A DNA stretch of 32,650 bases from Candidatus Komeilibacteria bacterium (GTDB lineage Bacteria; Patescibacteriota; Patescibacteriia; UBA1558; S5-K13), in contig JAUVAE010000002.1 of the NCBI GenBank assembly GCA_030591905.1, positions 1 through 32,650 on the forward strand, given 5' to 3'. How positions within the stretch are numbered: position 1 is the stretch's first letter; the number at the start of each line of letters is the position of its first letter. This document shows, piece after piece, positions 11,637-17,165 of this stretch. The position numbers and the translations under genes are program-made. The notes under the pieces were generated by a model. The model saw nothing but the letters and a program-made list of their open reading frames with translations. It had not been told where the DNA came from and made no database searches.

Positions 11637-13118
11637 ATGGTTAAAACAAAAAAGAAAAAAAATTTAAAGAAAATTATTTCTAAACTTATTTCCCTGCCTA
11701 CCGGACAGGCAGGTAAAAAGAAAGCTGCTAAAGAGAAACCTGTTAAAAAAGTTGTCAGAAAGAAAGCTGCTAAAAAGAAACCTGTTAAAAAAGTTGTCAG
11801 AAAGAAAGCTGCTAAAAAGAAACCTGCTAAAAAAGTTGTCAGAAAGAAAGCTGCTAAAAAGAAAGCTGCTAAAAAGAAACCTGTTAAAAAGAAAGTTACT
11901 AAGAAAGTTACTAAGAAAAAGGTTTCTAAAAGGTCTGTTAAAAAAGTTGCTAAAAAGAAACCAGCTAAAAAGAAACCAGCTAAAAAATCAACTAGAAGAA
12001 AGTCTAGGAAAAAAATTAAAAGAAAAAAAGAAGATATTATTTTTCCAAAACAGGATCGCCTAAAAGCATTAATGAGAGAGGGTAGAAATAGAGGATTTAT
12101 AACTGAGAATGAACTTTTATACTCATTTCCAGAATTAGAAGAATATTTAGAGTTATATGAGAAATATTTGGATGACATGGAGGAAAATAGTGTAGATATA
12201 TTAATTAATGAAATTGGATTATTGAATAATGCTGAAGAGGATGAAGCTGGTGTAAAATTAGATATTTCAGGTGTTACTTTTGATTTGGGAAAAATTTCTT
12301 CAGATTCTATTCAGATGTATTTACGGGAAATTGGTAAAGTTTCTTTGTTAACTTTTGAAGAAGAAGTTGCTTTAGCAAAAAGAAAAGAAAAAGGCGAGGT
12401 TGCTGCTAAAATCCAATTGATTAAGGCTAATTTAAGATTAGTGGTAAGTATCGCTAAAAGGTATACGGGACATTCATTGTCATTATTGGATTTAATTCAA
12501 GAAGGTAATATTGGTTTATTTAGGGCAGTGGAAAAATTTGAATATCGGAAAGGTTATAAATTTTCAACCTATGCTACCTGGTGGATTAGACAAGCAATTA
12601 CTAGAGCGTTAGCTGATCAATCTAGGACGATTAGAATACCTGTTCATATGGTAGAGACAATAAATAAATTTCAACAGGTTCAGAGAAGATTAATTCAAGA
12701 TTTAGGTCGAGAGCCTTTACCAGAAGAAATTGCTTATGAAATGGGAGAAGATTTAAATAAGATTCATCATGTTATTAAAATTTCTCAAGAAACAGTTTCT
12801 TTGGAAACAAGCATTGGGGAAGACGATGAAGATTCTACTTTAAGTGATTTTATTGAAGATAAAAAAACTATTCCACCAGATAAGGTTGCTGCTTTAAGAT
12901 TATTAAGAGATCATGTTAAAGAAATAATTTCAGATTTAACTCCTCGAGAACAAAAAATATTAGAAATGCGTTTTGGTTTAACAGATGGTATTGCTCATAC
13001 TTTGGAAGAGGTAGGGCAAGAATTTGGGGTTACTAGAGAAAGGATTAGACAAATTGAGGCTAAGTCATTAGAAAAAATTGCAGCCAAACATGGTATTGTT
13101 AAGCTAAAAGATTATTAA
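11637..13118 (+). CDS. rpoD: Primary-like RNA polymerase sigma-70 factor with Lys/Ala-rich repetitive N-terminus
   Basis: Region 2 [40 protein letters not shown]. Region 3 [13 protein letters not shown]. Region 4 [23 protein letters not shown]. About 125 N-terminal residues of [14 protein letters not shown] repeats. Confidence 0.95.
11693..11713. repeat. CCTGCC..GGCAGG palindrome copy inside rpoD (reads LPTGQAG)
   Basis: cctgcctaccggacaggcagg, 7-bp arms, GC-rich island in AT-rich coding sequence. Confidence 0.75.
11721..11890 (+). repeat. 42-bp tandem coding repeat (three near-identical units plus partial units)
   Basis: Units 11721-11762, 11763-11804 and 11805-11846; unit 1 and unit 3 each differ from unit 2 by a single nucleotide (aaagctgctaaaaagaaacctgttaaaaaagttgtcagaaag). 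Degenerate continuation to about 12035. Confidence 0.9.
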
Positions 13119-13354: not shown

Positions 13355-13431
13355 TTCGCGGTAGCTCAGTTGGTTAGAGCGACTGGCTGTTAACCAGTAG
13401 GTCGTCGGTTCGAACCCGACCCGCGAAGCCA
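13355..13431 (+). tRNA. tRNA-Asn (anticodon GTT), CCA encoded
   Basis: Manual fold: acceptor ttcgcgg/ccgcgaa, D arm gctc/gagc, anticodon arm actgg-ctGTTaa-ccagt, T arm gtcgg-ttcgaac-ccgac, discriminator g, cca. Confidence 0.92.
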
Positions 13432-14180: not shown

Positions 14181-14495
14181 ATGAATACTCAATTTAAAAA
14201 AGGAGTCTTGGAAATGTGTGTTTTATCAATGCTTAGCAAGAAAGATTGTTACGGTTATGAACTAGTTAATGAATTATCTAAAAAAATATCCATTTCTGAA
14301 GGGACGATATATCCTTTATTAAATAGGTTAATAAAGGCAAAATATGTAAATACTTATTTAAAGGAATCTAGTTTGGGTCCAGCTCGTAAATATTATAAAT
14401 TAACAGTTTCTGGTAAAAAAATGAGCAAAAAATTGAAAAATGGTTGGATAATTTTTTCTAAAAGAGTAGAAGCAGTATTAAAGAGTAAAAAATAG
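14181..14495 (+). CDS. PadR family transcriptional regulator
   Basis: [26 protein letters not shown]....[12 protein letters not shown]...Y.........RKYYKLT, the classic PadR winged-helix signature. Confidence 0.9.
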
Positions 14496-14519
14496 AAAAT
14501 TATTAACAAATTTAATTAT

Positions 14520-14867
14520 ATGGTAGTAATATATGGAGTAGATACGGAAGATGAAATTACCCCTGAAAAAGTTCGAGATGCTATTATTGAATGTTTTTAT
14601 AATGCTCATCAAGAGGTTTTGAAAGATATGTATGTTATATCAGGAGAAGATAAAAAAACGGAAGAACCGAATGAAATAGGTCGAAAATATATTGAAGAAA
14701 CGATTATTAATTATTTCATTAAAGTCGGTGGTGATTTTAATAAACCAACTAAAGAAGATATTTTAAAGGTTTTAGAAGAATTGAAAGAATTCGCTAAGGG
14801 ATTTAGAAGTCCAGAAATTATTAAAAAGCATTATGGAGAAATAATGCAATTGGTTGAAAAGTTATAA
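14520..14867 (+). CDS. Hypothetical acidic protein, co-oriented with padR
   Basis: ORF 25 nt downstream of padR. No family recognised. Confidence 0.6.
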   Translation: MVVIYGVDTEDEITPEKVRDAIIECFYNAHQEVLKDMYVISGEDKKTEEPNEIGRKYIEETIINYFIKVGGDFNKPTKEDILKVLEELKEFAKGFRSPEIIKKHYGEIMQLVEKL

Positions 14868-14875
14868 ATTAGGAG

Positions 14876-14950
14876 AGACGCAAAATTTTGCGTCTGTACA
14901 AGTTTTCTGCCCGTTAGCAGGTAGGTAAGATTAGAGCCATTAATTTTTTT
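14876..14950 (+). terminator. Composite palindrome module (homologous to 13135..13201)
   Basis: Perfect palindrome agacgcaaaattttgcgtct (14876-14895), degenerate ctgcccgttagcaggtagg (14907-14925), T7 at 14944-14950. Same TAAATTAGGA..GAGACG lead-in as after rpoD. Confidence 0.55.
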
Positions 14951-14985
14951 GATGACTTTTTTGTTTACCCTTATACTTTTTTTAA

Positions 14986-15014
14986 TTGACTTTATTATTG
15001 ATGTATACTAAAAT
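14986..15014 (+). promoter_or_regulatory. Candidate sigma-70 promoter of the nucleotidyltransferase/radical SAM operon
   Basis: TTGACT (14986-14991), 17-bp spacer, TAAAAT (15009-15014). The TTG that opens ORF-track ORF 14986 is this -35 box. Confidence 0.4.
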
Positions 15015-15084
15015 ATTAGGATTATTTTATTATATTATTTGCAATAAAATTTTTTATTCATTAAAAATATATATGGAGGTTGTT

Positions 15085-15792
15085 ATGGTAAAGGCAATAA
15101 TTTTAGCCGCTGGTCTTTCTAGTAGAATGAAACCGTTGACAGATAACTGTCCCAAACCAATGCTTTTATTAAATGGCAAACCAATCATGGAGTATGTTAT
15201 AAATCATTTAAGGAAGCATGGTATAGTAGAAATAATTATCACTACACATTATTTTCCACATGTGATAGAAGATTATTTTGGTGACGGTTCAGAATTTGGA
15301 GTTAGGATTGAGTATTCACATGAGAAAGTATTAAGAAATACGGCTGGATCATTAAAGTTGGCAGAATCATTAGTTGGCGAAGAATTCTTAGTTTGTGGAG
15401 GTCATTTCTTTTTACCGTCCCTTAATTTAGGAGATCTTATTAGATTTCATAAAAAACAAGGTGGAATTGCAACTATCGTATTTAAGAATCTAAATGAAAG
15501 TAATTTATTAGGATTTTTTGGTCAAGGTATTCTTGATAAAGATAAAAGGCTTATAGCTTTTCAAGAAAAACCAAAATACAAATTGAGTCATTATGTACAT
15601 ACTACATACCAGATTTTTAAAAGGGATATTTTTAAATTTATACCCCCTAAAAAATTTGTATCTATTCCAAAGTTTTTAATACCTCGGTTATTAAATCAAA
15701 ATTTGGATGTGTATGGGTATTGTAGTGATAGTGAGTTAATAAATTTATCTAATTTTGAGCTTTATGCAAGAGCTTTAAAAAAGATAAAATAA
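15085..15792 (+). CDS. Sugar-phosphate nucleotidyltransferase (NTP_transferase fold)
   Basis: MVKAIILAAGLSSRMKPLTDNCPKPMLLLNGKPIMEYVI matches the G-rich NTP-binding N-terminus of the GalU/RmlA/ManC family. GGAGG lies 5 nt before ATG 15085, so the 14986 extension is rejected. Confidence 0.85.
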   Translation: MVKAIILAAGLSSRMKPLTDNCPKPMLLLNGKPIMEYVINHLRKHGIVEIIITTHYFPHVIEDYFGDGSEFGVRIEYSHEKVLRNTAGSLKLAESLVGEEFLVCGGHFFLPSLNLGDLIRFHKKQGGIATIVFKNLNESNLLGFFGQGILDKDKRLIAFQEKPKYKLSHYVHTTYQIFKRDIFKFIPPKKFVSIPKFLIPRLLNQNLDVYGYCSDSELINLSNFELYARALKKIK

Positions 15793-15811
15793 TCTAAAAA
15801 AGGAGGTAATC

Positions 15812-16669
15812 ATGAATAAGCCACATAACTTTGATAATATTGACTGGTTTATTACTAGACTTTGTAATCAAAGGAAGAAGTGTAAATTTTGCTTTGCACC
15901 ATGGGATAGATTTCCGATAGACGCAACATATGAGCAGGCAAAGTTAATTTGTCAACGTTTAGCAGAGATAGGCATCAAGATAGTAACAATATGTGGAGGA
16001 GAACCTACCTTATATCCACATATATTTGAAACAATTCAATTGTTGTATCAATTGGGCTTGAAAGTTAATTTTTACTCAAATTTGGCAACTCAAAAAAATG
16101 TAGAAGTTGTTATGAGTATCTTACCTTTTATTGATATTCTATCTGTGCCCGTAGATGCGGTTACTCAAACGGCTATTTCTCAAATGAGAGGTAGAGATCA
16201 ATTCAAATCAGTTTGTAAGACATTAGATGATTTACAGTCCATAGAAACGAAACCGACTATTAAGATCGGTACAGTAGTAACTAAACAAAATATTAATGAT
16301 TTGAAAAATTTGTTTCTATTTTTGGAAAATTATCAAATAATTAATATTTGGAGAATATATCAATTTTCTCCTTATGGACAAGGTAAAAAATATGAGGATC
16401 TTTTCTTAGTAAGTGATGATGATTTTAACAGAGCTGTCTCAGCAGTAAAAAAAATGGCCCCAAATAAGCCAATTAATATCTCTGTTAGAAAAAGGTCTAA
16501 TAACATCGGCTATTGTCATATCATGGATTCACAAGGAGGATTATACAGGTATGAAGAGGAGTATATTGATTTAGGTGTTAATGTTTTTAATAAGCCTGAA
16601 GAGATAATTGTACATTATGATGAAAAGACTAATCGTTTACAAAAAAGATGGCAACGAAAAATATTTTAA
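15812..16669 (+). CDS. Radical SAM enzyme, viperin-like, with CX5CX2C cluster motif
   Basis: WFITRLCNQRKKCKFCF, ICGGEPTL, FYSN, IDILSVPVD, IKIGTVV, NIWRIYQF and VSDDDF blocks align collinearly by eye with viperin blocks FTRQCNYKCGFCF, FSGGEPFL, IVSN, LDILAISCD, FKINSVI, VRWKVFQ and IGDEEF. Strong RBS aggagg. Confidence 0.8.
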   Translation: MNKPHNFDNIDWFITRLCNQRKKCKFCFAPWDRFPIDATYEQAKLICQRLAEIGIKIVTICGGEPTLYPHIFETIQLLYQLGLKVNFYSNLATQKNVEVVMSILPFIDILSVPVDAVTQTAISQMRGRDQFKSVCKTLDDLQSIETKPTIKIGTVVTKQNINDLKNLFLFLENYQIINIWRIYQFSPYGQGKKYEDLFLVSDDDFNRAVSAVKKMAPNKPINISVRKRSNNIGYCHIMDSQGGLYRYEEEYIDLGVNVFNKPEEIIVHYDEKTNRLQKRWQRKIF

Positions 16670-16674
16670 TACGT

Positions 16675-16704
16675 ATGCACCAAAGTTATAAAACTTTGGT
16701 GCAT
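16675..16704. terminator. Bidirectional hairpin between convergent genes
   Basis: atgcaccaaagtt/aactttggtgcat arms with flanking T/A runs. Overlaps the 3' end of the Nudix gene. Confidence 0.55.
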
Positions 16705-17165
16705 TTTTTAATTGCTGCATAAATAACTGGATGGGTATTGTTTTTATTTAATTTGTTTATGTCTTGCCATTCCACGGTTTTTATCTCATCTCCATCGCAA
16801 GTATTTATAATATTTTTATTCTGTTTTTTGTTGATTAAAGCTCCTTTATAAACAATTATTAAAGAGTGATAAAATTTTTTGAAATGTTTATGATAAAAAT
16901 TTTGCTCTGCAAAATAAAAGGGCATTTTATCTTTTATTTTGATTTTATAACCTGTTTCTTCATAACATTCTCTTATAATGCCTTGAAAAATACTTTCATT
17001 CTTTTCAACTCCACCGCCCGGTAATTCATAAAGAGGACTCCATGTGGGCACTACTACTAAAATTTTTTTATTGTAAATAACCAAAGCATAAGCAGAAATA
17101 CGCCAGTATATTTGTCTGCCTTTTGGTAATTTATATTTTTTACCATTAGCATCTAAAAATATCAT
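16686..17165 (-). CDS. Nudix hydrolase
   Basis: Nudix box GGGVEKNESIFQGIIRECYEETGY (GX5EX7REUXEEXGU). Confidence 0.9.
   Translation of the reverse strand: MIFLDANGKKYKLPKGRQIYWRISAYALVIYNKKILVVVPTWSPLYELPGGGVEKNESIFQGIIRECYEETGYKIKIKDKMPFYFAEQNFYHKHFKKFYHSLIIVYKGALINKKQNKNIINTCDGDEIKTVEWQDINKLNKNNTHPVIYAAIKKCTKVL

Follow-up and report, generated by a model that had tools for sequence, protein, structure and literature searches.

The window analysed here, a stretch of 32,650 nucleotides from a Candidatus Komeilibacteria bacterium (contig JAUVAE010000002.1), carries three adjacent genes encoding a nucleoside triphosphate (NTP) transferase-like protein, a radical S-adenosylmethionine (SAM) enzyme (rSAM) and a convergently oriented Nudix hydrolase. 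We put the chance at roughly one in two that they constitute a self-contained module, occurring mainly in Patescibacteria, whose substrate would be a small molecule linked to a nucleotide, most probably a nucleoside diphosphate (NDP) sugar. GC content of the window is about 28%, dnaG, rpoD, secE and nusG are found around the module, and the nearest relatives of the window genes belong to Patescibacteria. An earlier reading of the same DNA, made from the sequence alone and referred to below as the original prediction, described five open reading frames (ORFs) at this locus. All five were recovered with the same coordinates and domains by an ORF check and by Pfam and NCBIfam profiles (Table 1).

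Table 1. Features of the module and its surroundings; positions are those of the window.
Feature	Position	Strand	Remarks
NTP-transferase-like protein, 235 aa	15085..15792	+	PF00483 2.7e-31, 109.5 bits (cutoff 21.2 bits)
rSAM enzyme, 285 aa	15812..16669	+	PF04055 6.6e-15; viperin-fold model
Hairpin, 13-bp stem and T-run	16675..16704		between convergent rSAM and Nudix genes; overlaps 3' end of Nudix gene
Nudix hydrolase, 159 aa	16686..17165	-	PF00293 1.1e-14; Nudix box GGVEKNESIFQGIIRECYEETGY
Promoter-like TTGACT-N17-TAAAAT	14986..15014	+	10/12 matches; candidate only, as frequent in shuffled sequences
PadR	14181-14495		PF03551 4e-18
Acidic protein of 115 aa (p115)	14520-14867		no family match
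tRNA-Asn (GTT)	13355-13431		between rpoD and small ORFs upstream of PadR

The NTP-transferase gene most likely starts at the ATG at 15085, just downstream of a GGAGG. A mechanically assigned TTG start at 14986 was discarded, since this TTG falls in the proposed -35 hexamer itself. The promoter to which that hexamer would belong, placed in front of the operon by the original prediction, has both of its hexamers, located 3' of the hairpin that follows the p115 gene. Promoter-like matches in this AT-rich stretch are, however, as numerous when it is shuffled (24.5) as in the real sequence (23), so that the site alone is no evidence. Similarly, translational coupling had been claimed for the NTP-transferase and rSAM genes. 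They do form an operon, but a 19-nt gap separates them and rSAM is provided with an AAGGAGG of its own.

The proposed hairpin shared by the convergent rSAM and Nudix genes was found, and in general terminator-like sites exceed expectation (6 observed versus 1.2 expected). This hairpin probably terminates transcription in both directions. Another one, which follows the p115 gene, splits PadR-p115 from the NTP-transferase-rSAM operon. Together the two hairpins imply three transcription units: PadR-p115, NTP-transferase-rSAM and Nudix. Neither a riboswitch nor any other known RNA was found in the 5' leader, the tRNA-Asn being the sole RNA match.

Fold and active site of the radical SAM enzyme

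The rSAM protein had been described as resembling viperin block by block, and this resemblance was reproduced in hidden Markov model (HMM) alignments. Also confirmed were two deviations, a CX5CX2C cluster motif (CNQRKKCKFC, residues C18-X5-C24-X2-C27) and D-W-F (D11-W12-F13) in place of the N-x-H that precedes it in viperin. The best NCBIfam match is the viperin equivalog NF038283, which scores 81.5 bits on this protein and 55-106 bits on members of the rSAM family described here, with a cutoff of 180 bits. PADLOC models of prokaryotic viperins (pVips) give 88-94 bits; since a pVip model reaches 94 bits, permissive defence annotators could label such genes pVip. When a profile of 43 family members was compared with PDB, the CTP-bound viperin-like structure 9dfn ranked first (72.6 bits, E = 3e-19), followed by SkfB.

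A structure search with an AlphaFold model had been suggested as a check of the viperin assignment, and it placed viperins on top. The AlphaFold2 model has a mean predicted local distance difference test (pLDDT) score of 95.4, and Foldseek ranks 1-16 in PDB are all viperins, at 18-21% identity over approximately 290 columns; template modelling (TM) scores are TMq 0.78 (mouse viperin) and TMt 0.76. SkfB, SuiB, DesII and MoaA come after them. As these scores refer to full-length alignments, the predicted fold is viperin-like including the C-terminal extension. Thus, as far as model and profiles can tell, the protein is viperin-like in fold but no member of the curated viperin family: of the proposed viperin identity, the fold and the best profile matches hold, and membership in the equivalog does not. 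Because the protein groups with none of the characterised non-viperin families, and because the NTP-transferase, rSAM and Nudix genes stay together elsewhere (see below), the viperin-like idea survives the refutation test attached to it in the original prediction.

HcgA/HmdB-type rSAM enzymes are the other known enzymes with a CX5CX2C motif. Kinship with them was set aside without direct comparison, on the grounds that the best matches are viperin-like and that Cys spacing differs among family members. No hmd or hcg genes are present in the loci examined.

To compare residues, the family was aligned with two PGAP-annotated pVips and the T. virens viperin-like enzyme, and 190 relatives were aligned by hmmalign. 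The residues K120, R194, K220, R245, K247 and Tyr302 and the C-terminal RGG(K) loop (mouse numbering) are those which we take to bind NTP in viperin. In the sequence alignment, three of these positions (R194, K220 and K247) are matched by invariant R126, K151 and R181 of the rSAM family, while the K120 and R245 positions are not conserved. The family also keeps the three cluster Cys, which are invariant, and GGEP. Several substitutions are peculiar to it. The viperin N-x-H, which reads N-(W/Y)-H in pVips, is replaced by invariant D11-W12; (A/S)GGEP becomes CGGEP, with C61; the Tyr302 position is occupied by invariant C235; and the C-terminal RGG of the two aligned pVips is absent, with QKxW in its place.

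An invariant Cys pair, C61/C235, would accordingly stand where viperin has its Tyr302 state, a feature overlooked in the original prediction. Both Cys occur in 45/45 core family members and in 25 of the 27 other relatives that have the first one. The alternative state, (S/T/A) with Tyr, is found in 59 other relatives, true pVips included. Covariation of the two states among relatives gives a Fisher p = 4e-16 that is not corrected for phylogeny. The location of the pair at active-site positions suggests that a thiol might give a hydrogen atom or an electron to resolve a substrate radical, which would be compatible with epimerisation as well as with reductive dehydration or deoxygenation.

Partner genes and their genomic context

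The rSAM family comprises approximately 47 homologues (35-54% identity), mostly from Patescibacteria. Loci were recovered from genomes, metagenomes and assemblies and then searched with the window proteins. Every homologue of 38-51% identity is adjoined by an NTP-transferase orthologue (44-61% identity), with the exception of one sub-clade of the biosynthetic gene cluster type, and an overlap of 4-11 nt between the two is seen in several orthologous loci. As third gene, at least seven distinct loci have the Nudix orthologue (46-63% identity) (adjoining rSAM in L001, L002/L051, L029/L030, L036, L040, L048 and L122). The trio whose conservation had been named as a check is thus kept across many genomes. 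In two loci (L042, L045/L125) the third position is filled by another Nudix lineage, and in two more (L041, L123) by an orthologous HIT protein with intact HxHxH. This replacement of Nudix by a HIT hydrolase, which the original prediction had overlooked, is a non-orthologous displacement, which suggests that what the module needs from its third gene is cleavage of a phosphoanhydride. The Nudix hydrolase of the window is itself intact in its Nudix box GX5EX7REUXEEXGU, invariant in 8 orthologues, and matches PF00293 with 55 bits (cutoff 21.1 bits), without being assignable to a particular substrate class.

The NTP-transferase-like protein finds its best PDB match in 8x7s, a UTP-glucose-1-phosphate uridylyltransferase (131.7 bits), and lies far below the cutoffs of all NCBIfam equivalogs. 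It belongs to a dedicated clade of about 35 proteins (41-62% identity), similar in size to the rSAM family and encoded on the same contigs as rSAM homologues, beyond which scores drop to generic enzymes. Clade and generic relatives were compared in one alignment, in which the latter keep all motifs. The atypical GLSSRM loop noticed earlier is real and clade-wide, GxGTR of generic enzymes being GxS(S/T)R in the clade; further, GD is changed to G(H/N/S), xGxY to HTTYQ and DxG to (N/C)xS. The window protein reads GLSSRM, GGH, HTTYQ and NLS at these sites. By this alignment both canonical metal-binding Asp are absent throughout the clade, which had likewise escaped notice, while the phosphate-binding R18, K28 (of PKP) and Lys of EKP are retained. 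The protein could therefore be either a transferase of unusual mechanism or a non-catalytic partner that binds a nucleotide or nucleotide-sugar.

The second option leads to an alternative account, in which this protein would be a non-catalytic subunit of the GalF, GMPPA or eIF2B-gamma type that regulates rSAM or delivers substrate to it, and rSAM would act on a pre-existing cellular nucleotide. In its favour are the absence from the whole clade of both Asp and the second Gly in the P-loop-like motif, the retained phosphate-binding residues, and the gene overlap, which suggests co-translation. Against it, some enzymes of this fold do without metal ligands from the protein or have Asn in the second position (IspD, GlmU N227), and sequence conservation is strong (up to 62% identity); moreover, the account alters the first step of the pathway proposed below and offers no replacement for it. 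We regard it as very improbable.

A neighbour-joining tree of the rSAM family, built without bootstrap support, displays three sub-clades that match both Cys spacing and gene context. The CX5C sub-clade (with two secondary CX3C cases) is found in Patescibacteria chromosomes, with NTP-transferase followed by rSAM and a Nudix or HIT gene. The CX4C sub-clade resides on mobile elements with ParA, resolvase, Mob_Pre and VapE; rSAM precedes NTP-transferase here, with one or more epimerases in the best-resolved loci. The CX3C sub-clade occupies loci resembling biosynthetic clusters, with further rSAM genes, NTP_transf_5, AMP-binding and carrier proteins, and genes similar to phosphoribosyl pyrophosphate (PRPP) synthase. 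CX5CX2C, put forward as diagnostic, is thus only one of the spacings (CX5, CX4 or CX3, depending on sub-clade), and CX5C is likely to be a derived insertion, because the outgroup has CX3C.

Some individual loci of these sub-clades deserve description. In three CX3C loci (L031 1-12861, L035 1-12840, L038 1-12858), two or three additional rSAM genes, one with a SPASM domain, occur with NTP_transf_5, AMP-binding and carrier proteins, DinB_2, an aldo-keto reductase and two PRPP-synthase-like genes; by gene content, this may be a natural-product cluster of nucleoside type. Among CX4C loci, L032 (3837-8994) contains a cassette of 26-28% GC (epimerase, rSAM, NTP-transferase) between two resolvase genes, in a backbone of 35-38% GC with ParA and Mob_Pre, and L124 (4287-11633) adds a polysaccharide pyruvyl transferase and a second epimerase. 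One CX4C protein (P0039) is indexed in 122 collection blocks, its cluster comprising 84 contigs; no match to the mobile-element versions was found in PLSDB or phage collections. Downstream of the trio in L040 (6477-8402), after a UDP-glucose dehydrogenase gene, lie a second, longer Nudix gene (291 aa) and a gene whose protein matches SIR2 weakly (E = 0.008).

Surroundings of the module differ in every genome. Genes of sugar-nucleotide metabolism (NAD-dependent epimerase/dehydratases, UDP-glucose dehydrogenase, GT4, pyruvyl transferase) are present in 5 of about 15 contexts, and no close rSAM family member that would indicate phage or plasmid origin was found in IMG/VR, INPHARED and PLSDB.

Such neighbours invite the idea of a cell-envelope glycan pathway, in which rSAM would make an unusual NDP-sugar (deoxy or epimerised) used directly by glycosyltransferases, and Nudix would only regulate its pool, as exemplified by GDP-mannose mannosyl hydrolase. 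Epimerase/dehydratase, UDP-glucose dehydrogenase, GT4/DUF4012 and pyruvyl-transferase genes near several loci agree with this, as do the mobile-element versions, which carry epimerases and no Nudix gene, and the relatedness of the NTP-transferase-like protein to UDP-glucose pyrophosphorylase. Nevertheless, linkage to a glycosyltransferase is not consistent. The chromosomal clade firmly retains a Nudix or HIT gene, with Nudix (46-63%) more conserved than rSAM, and the transferase has no catalytic aspartates. A glycan pathway of this kind seems decidedly unlikely to us.

The original prediction also counted PadR and p115 among the parts of the system. Sequence comparison indicates that they are neighbours rather than components of the module. 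Neither they nor a beta-propeller protein occur in any of the homologous rSAM loci, and PadR-p115 is a pair conserved in its own right, also in places where the trio is missing; both were thus dismissed as module members. In related genomes (L126 8614-9348; L127 5173-5907) the pair precedes MerR, IleRS and RecO genes, with no rSAM module. Homologues of p115 with 70-83% identity are encoded on many Patescibacteria contigs, and one with about 46% in a Woesearchaeota metagenome-assembled genome. The AlphaFold2 model of p115 (four helices, pLDDT 87.8) has no significant fold match in PDB. Elsewhere in the window, the RpoD homologue has a long Lys/Ala-rich N-terminal extension with repeats (11637-12100), opposite to which lies a spurious ORF of 186 aa.

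Beyond the family proper, its rSAM profile retrieves 369 clusters (50% identity) at E <= 1e-30. Among the 140 nearest clusters, 42 match NF038283 at E <= 1e-30 (best 7e-49), and none (0/140) reaches the viperin cutoff. Some distant members are adjacent to or fused with enzymes of nucleotide or sugar metabolism: PfkB kinase (as neighbour and as fusion), an AIRS-type kinase, Ham1 NTP pyrophosphatase and a cytidylyltransferase-like protein. These pairings are seen in L003 7983-9853 (Psychrobacter sp. Pi2-52, cultured), L006 7992-9692, L053 3395-5476 and L004 1284-2775, whose relatives (25-33% identity) carry a DWW(I/V)T motif and have their Cys spaced as CX3C. Among other relatives, scored at about 145-157 bits by the family profile (P0277, P0309, P0259 and P0304), there are fusions of TIR-rSAM-AsnC-ligand-domain, rSAM-winged helix-turn-helix and rSAM-PfkB type. 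These architectures hint that parts of the non-viperin cloud may be immune or signalling systems.

One more protein of the superfamily, 609 aa long, is encoded in a Saccharimonadales contig (DATIIS010000041.1, L010 7227-9056), with a distant rSAM member at residues 257-528. Its N-terminal region matches Nudix below threshold (Pfam E = 0.005, 17.2 bits with a cutoff of 21.1; hhalign E = 0.07), so that it may be a degenerate Nudix-rSAM fusion. Due to this sub-threshold Nudix support, it was rejected as "Rosetta stone" evidence and is kept as a hint only.

Proposed pathway and its alternatives

A nucleotidyltransferase fold, a viperin-fold rSAM and a hydrolase from either of two unrelated superfamilies recur together, and from this recurrence we infer a nucleotide-linked substrate, NDP-X. 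In the pathway that we favour, the NTP-transferase-like protein would first make, or at least bind and present, this substrate. The rSAM would then bind its nucleotide part in the viperin-like pocket, cleave SAM reductively and abstract a hydrogen from the substrate; the resulting radical would be resolved with the help of C61/C235, yielding a product that is dehydrated, deoxygenated or epimerised. Finally, Nudix, or HIT in some genomes, would cut the phosphoanhydride bond and so release the modified moiety or dispose of a modified nucleotide.

That the substrate contains a nucleotide is favoured by the predicted full-length viperin fold, by the CTP-bound PDB matches and by the apparent counterparts of viperin basic residues, R126, K151 and R181. 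Loss of N-x-H and RGG, gain of the Asp-Trp dyad and the share of contexts with sugar-nucleotide enzymes (5 of about 15) suggest that X would be a sugar and not a gamma-phosphate. Gene contexts as a whole lean towards nucleotide-sugar metabolism over defence islands.

Several observations weigh against this pathway. The NTP-transferase clade has neither of the canonical Mg-binding Asp nor the second Gly of GxGTR, so that its members may be unable to catalyse any nucleotidyl transfer. Nudix and HIT genes are missing from the mobile-element (CX4C) sub-clade; hydrolytic release is thus not universal. Sugar-related neighbours are limited to a minority of contexts, and the roles of viperin residues to which ours were compared are presumed ones. 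Two further points fit defence instead, namely the TIR-rSAM fusions among distant relatives and one locus situated between GmrSD and a SocA/Panacea gene.

A defence function was indeed considered. The module might be an antiviral system of viperin type, in which rSAM would turn NTP, or the ribose of an NDP-sugar, into a 3'-deoxy-3',4'-didehydro analogue toxic to phage polymerases or glycosyltransferases; the NTP-transferase-like protein would supply or cap the substrate, and Nudix or HIT would shield the host by hydrolysing excess analogue. Beside the two points just mentioned, this agrees with the viperin-like fold, with pVip models being the best profile matches (94 bits in PADLOC, NF038283 on top), with surroundings so variable that the module looks like an accessory gene set, and with a weak match of the Nudix protein to PADLOC candidate PDC-S07. 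There is also a precedent in Ophion, where a viperin-related but distinct rSAM with nucleotide-metabolism enzymes defends against phage (10.1101/2025.09.30.679545). On the contrary, the rSAM score is far under the curated viperin cutoff, viperin N-x-H, Tyr302 and C-terminal RGG are all replaced, and most contexts are housekeeping or sugar-related and not defence islands. Characterised pVips are not known to require an immunity gene, which also counts against such a system; the lack of close members in the phage and viral collections is neutral. Altogether, an antiviral system is unlikely in our opinion.

A related thought starts from the Cys pair. Through it, rSAM may carry out an undescribed viperin-like chemistry on a nucleotide or nucleotide-sugar, giving for example a 3'-deoxy/didehydro NDP-sugar, or a radically epimerised or deoxygenated sugar freed by Nudix or HIT. 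The product would then be a bioactive analogue, used by these episymbionts against phages or towards their hosts. We consider this reading as a whole rather unlikely.

Comparison with known systems

No description of the NTP-transferase, viperin-fold rSAM and Nudix combination was found in the literature, and NCBIfam and Pfam contain no family specific to it. Within a large cloud of viperin-fold rSAM proteins, only the viperins themselves are well understood. The operon described here is compact, has two defined partner enzymes and shows clear switches (N-x-H to D-W, Tyr to a Cys pair), so its reaction, once solved, would show what non-viperin relatives do and would extend by one function what little is understood of Patescibacteria metabolism. 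It could also yield a new modified nucleotide or nucleotide-sugar, a class of compounds with value as antivirals and drug leads.

The module shares with viperin and pVips (NF038283; 6Q2P, 9DFN) the partial TIM-barrel ((beta-alpha)6) rSAM fold with C-terminal extension, the order of motifs and gene linkage to nucleotide-metabolism enzymes; in the sequence alignment it also has basic residues opposite R194, K220 and K247. It differs from them in overall sequence (18-21% identity), in CX5C instead of CX3C, in D-W, CGGEP and Cys at the Tyr302 position, in the missing RGG tail, and in its partners, which are NTP-transferase-like and Nudix or HIT proteins and not kinases.

Ophion, a system demonstrated to defend Gammaproteobacteria against jumbo phages, consists of the rSAM OpnA, a PHP protein and a phosphoribosyltransferase (10.1101/2025.09.30.679545). 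By description it is similar to the present module in having three genes, built around an rSAM that is related to pVips but phylogenetically distinct, together with nucleotide-metabolism enzymes. The partners are different, PHP and phosphoribosyltransferase there versus NTP-transferase-like and Nudix or HIT proteins here.

DesII (8HZV) and BlsE (7VOB), rSAM enzymes acting on NDP-sugars or nucleosides, are also among the Foldseek matches. They are larger and belong to other families, and they match the model far less well than viperins do, with TMq 0.59-0.62, TMt 0.38-0.52 and a root-mean-square deviation of 7.5-9.5 A.

Fosfomycin biosynthesis offers a precedent: after cytidylylation by Fom1, the substrate is modified by the rSAM Fom3, and hydrolysis of the anhydride by FomD follows (PMC8158854). 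The three-step logic of nucleotidylylation, rSAM modification and phosphoanhydride hydrolysis is the same as that of the pathway we favour, by analogy and not by homology: Fom3 is a cobalamin-dependent class B methylase, FomD is neither Nudix nor HIT, and the substrate is a phosphonate. Viperin-like nucleotide-modifying systems are known as such, and what appears to be new in the present one is its set of partners and the distinct state of its active site.

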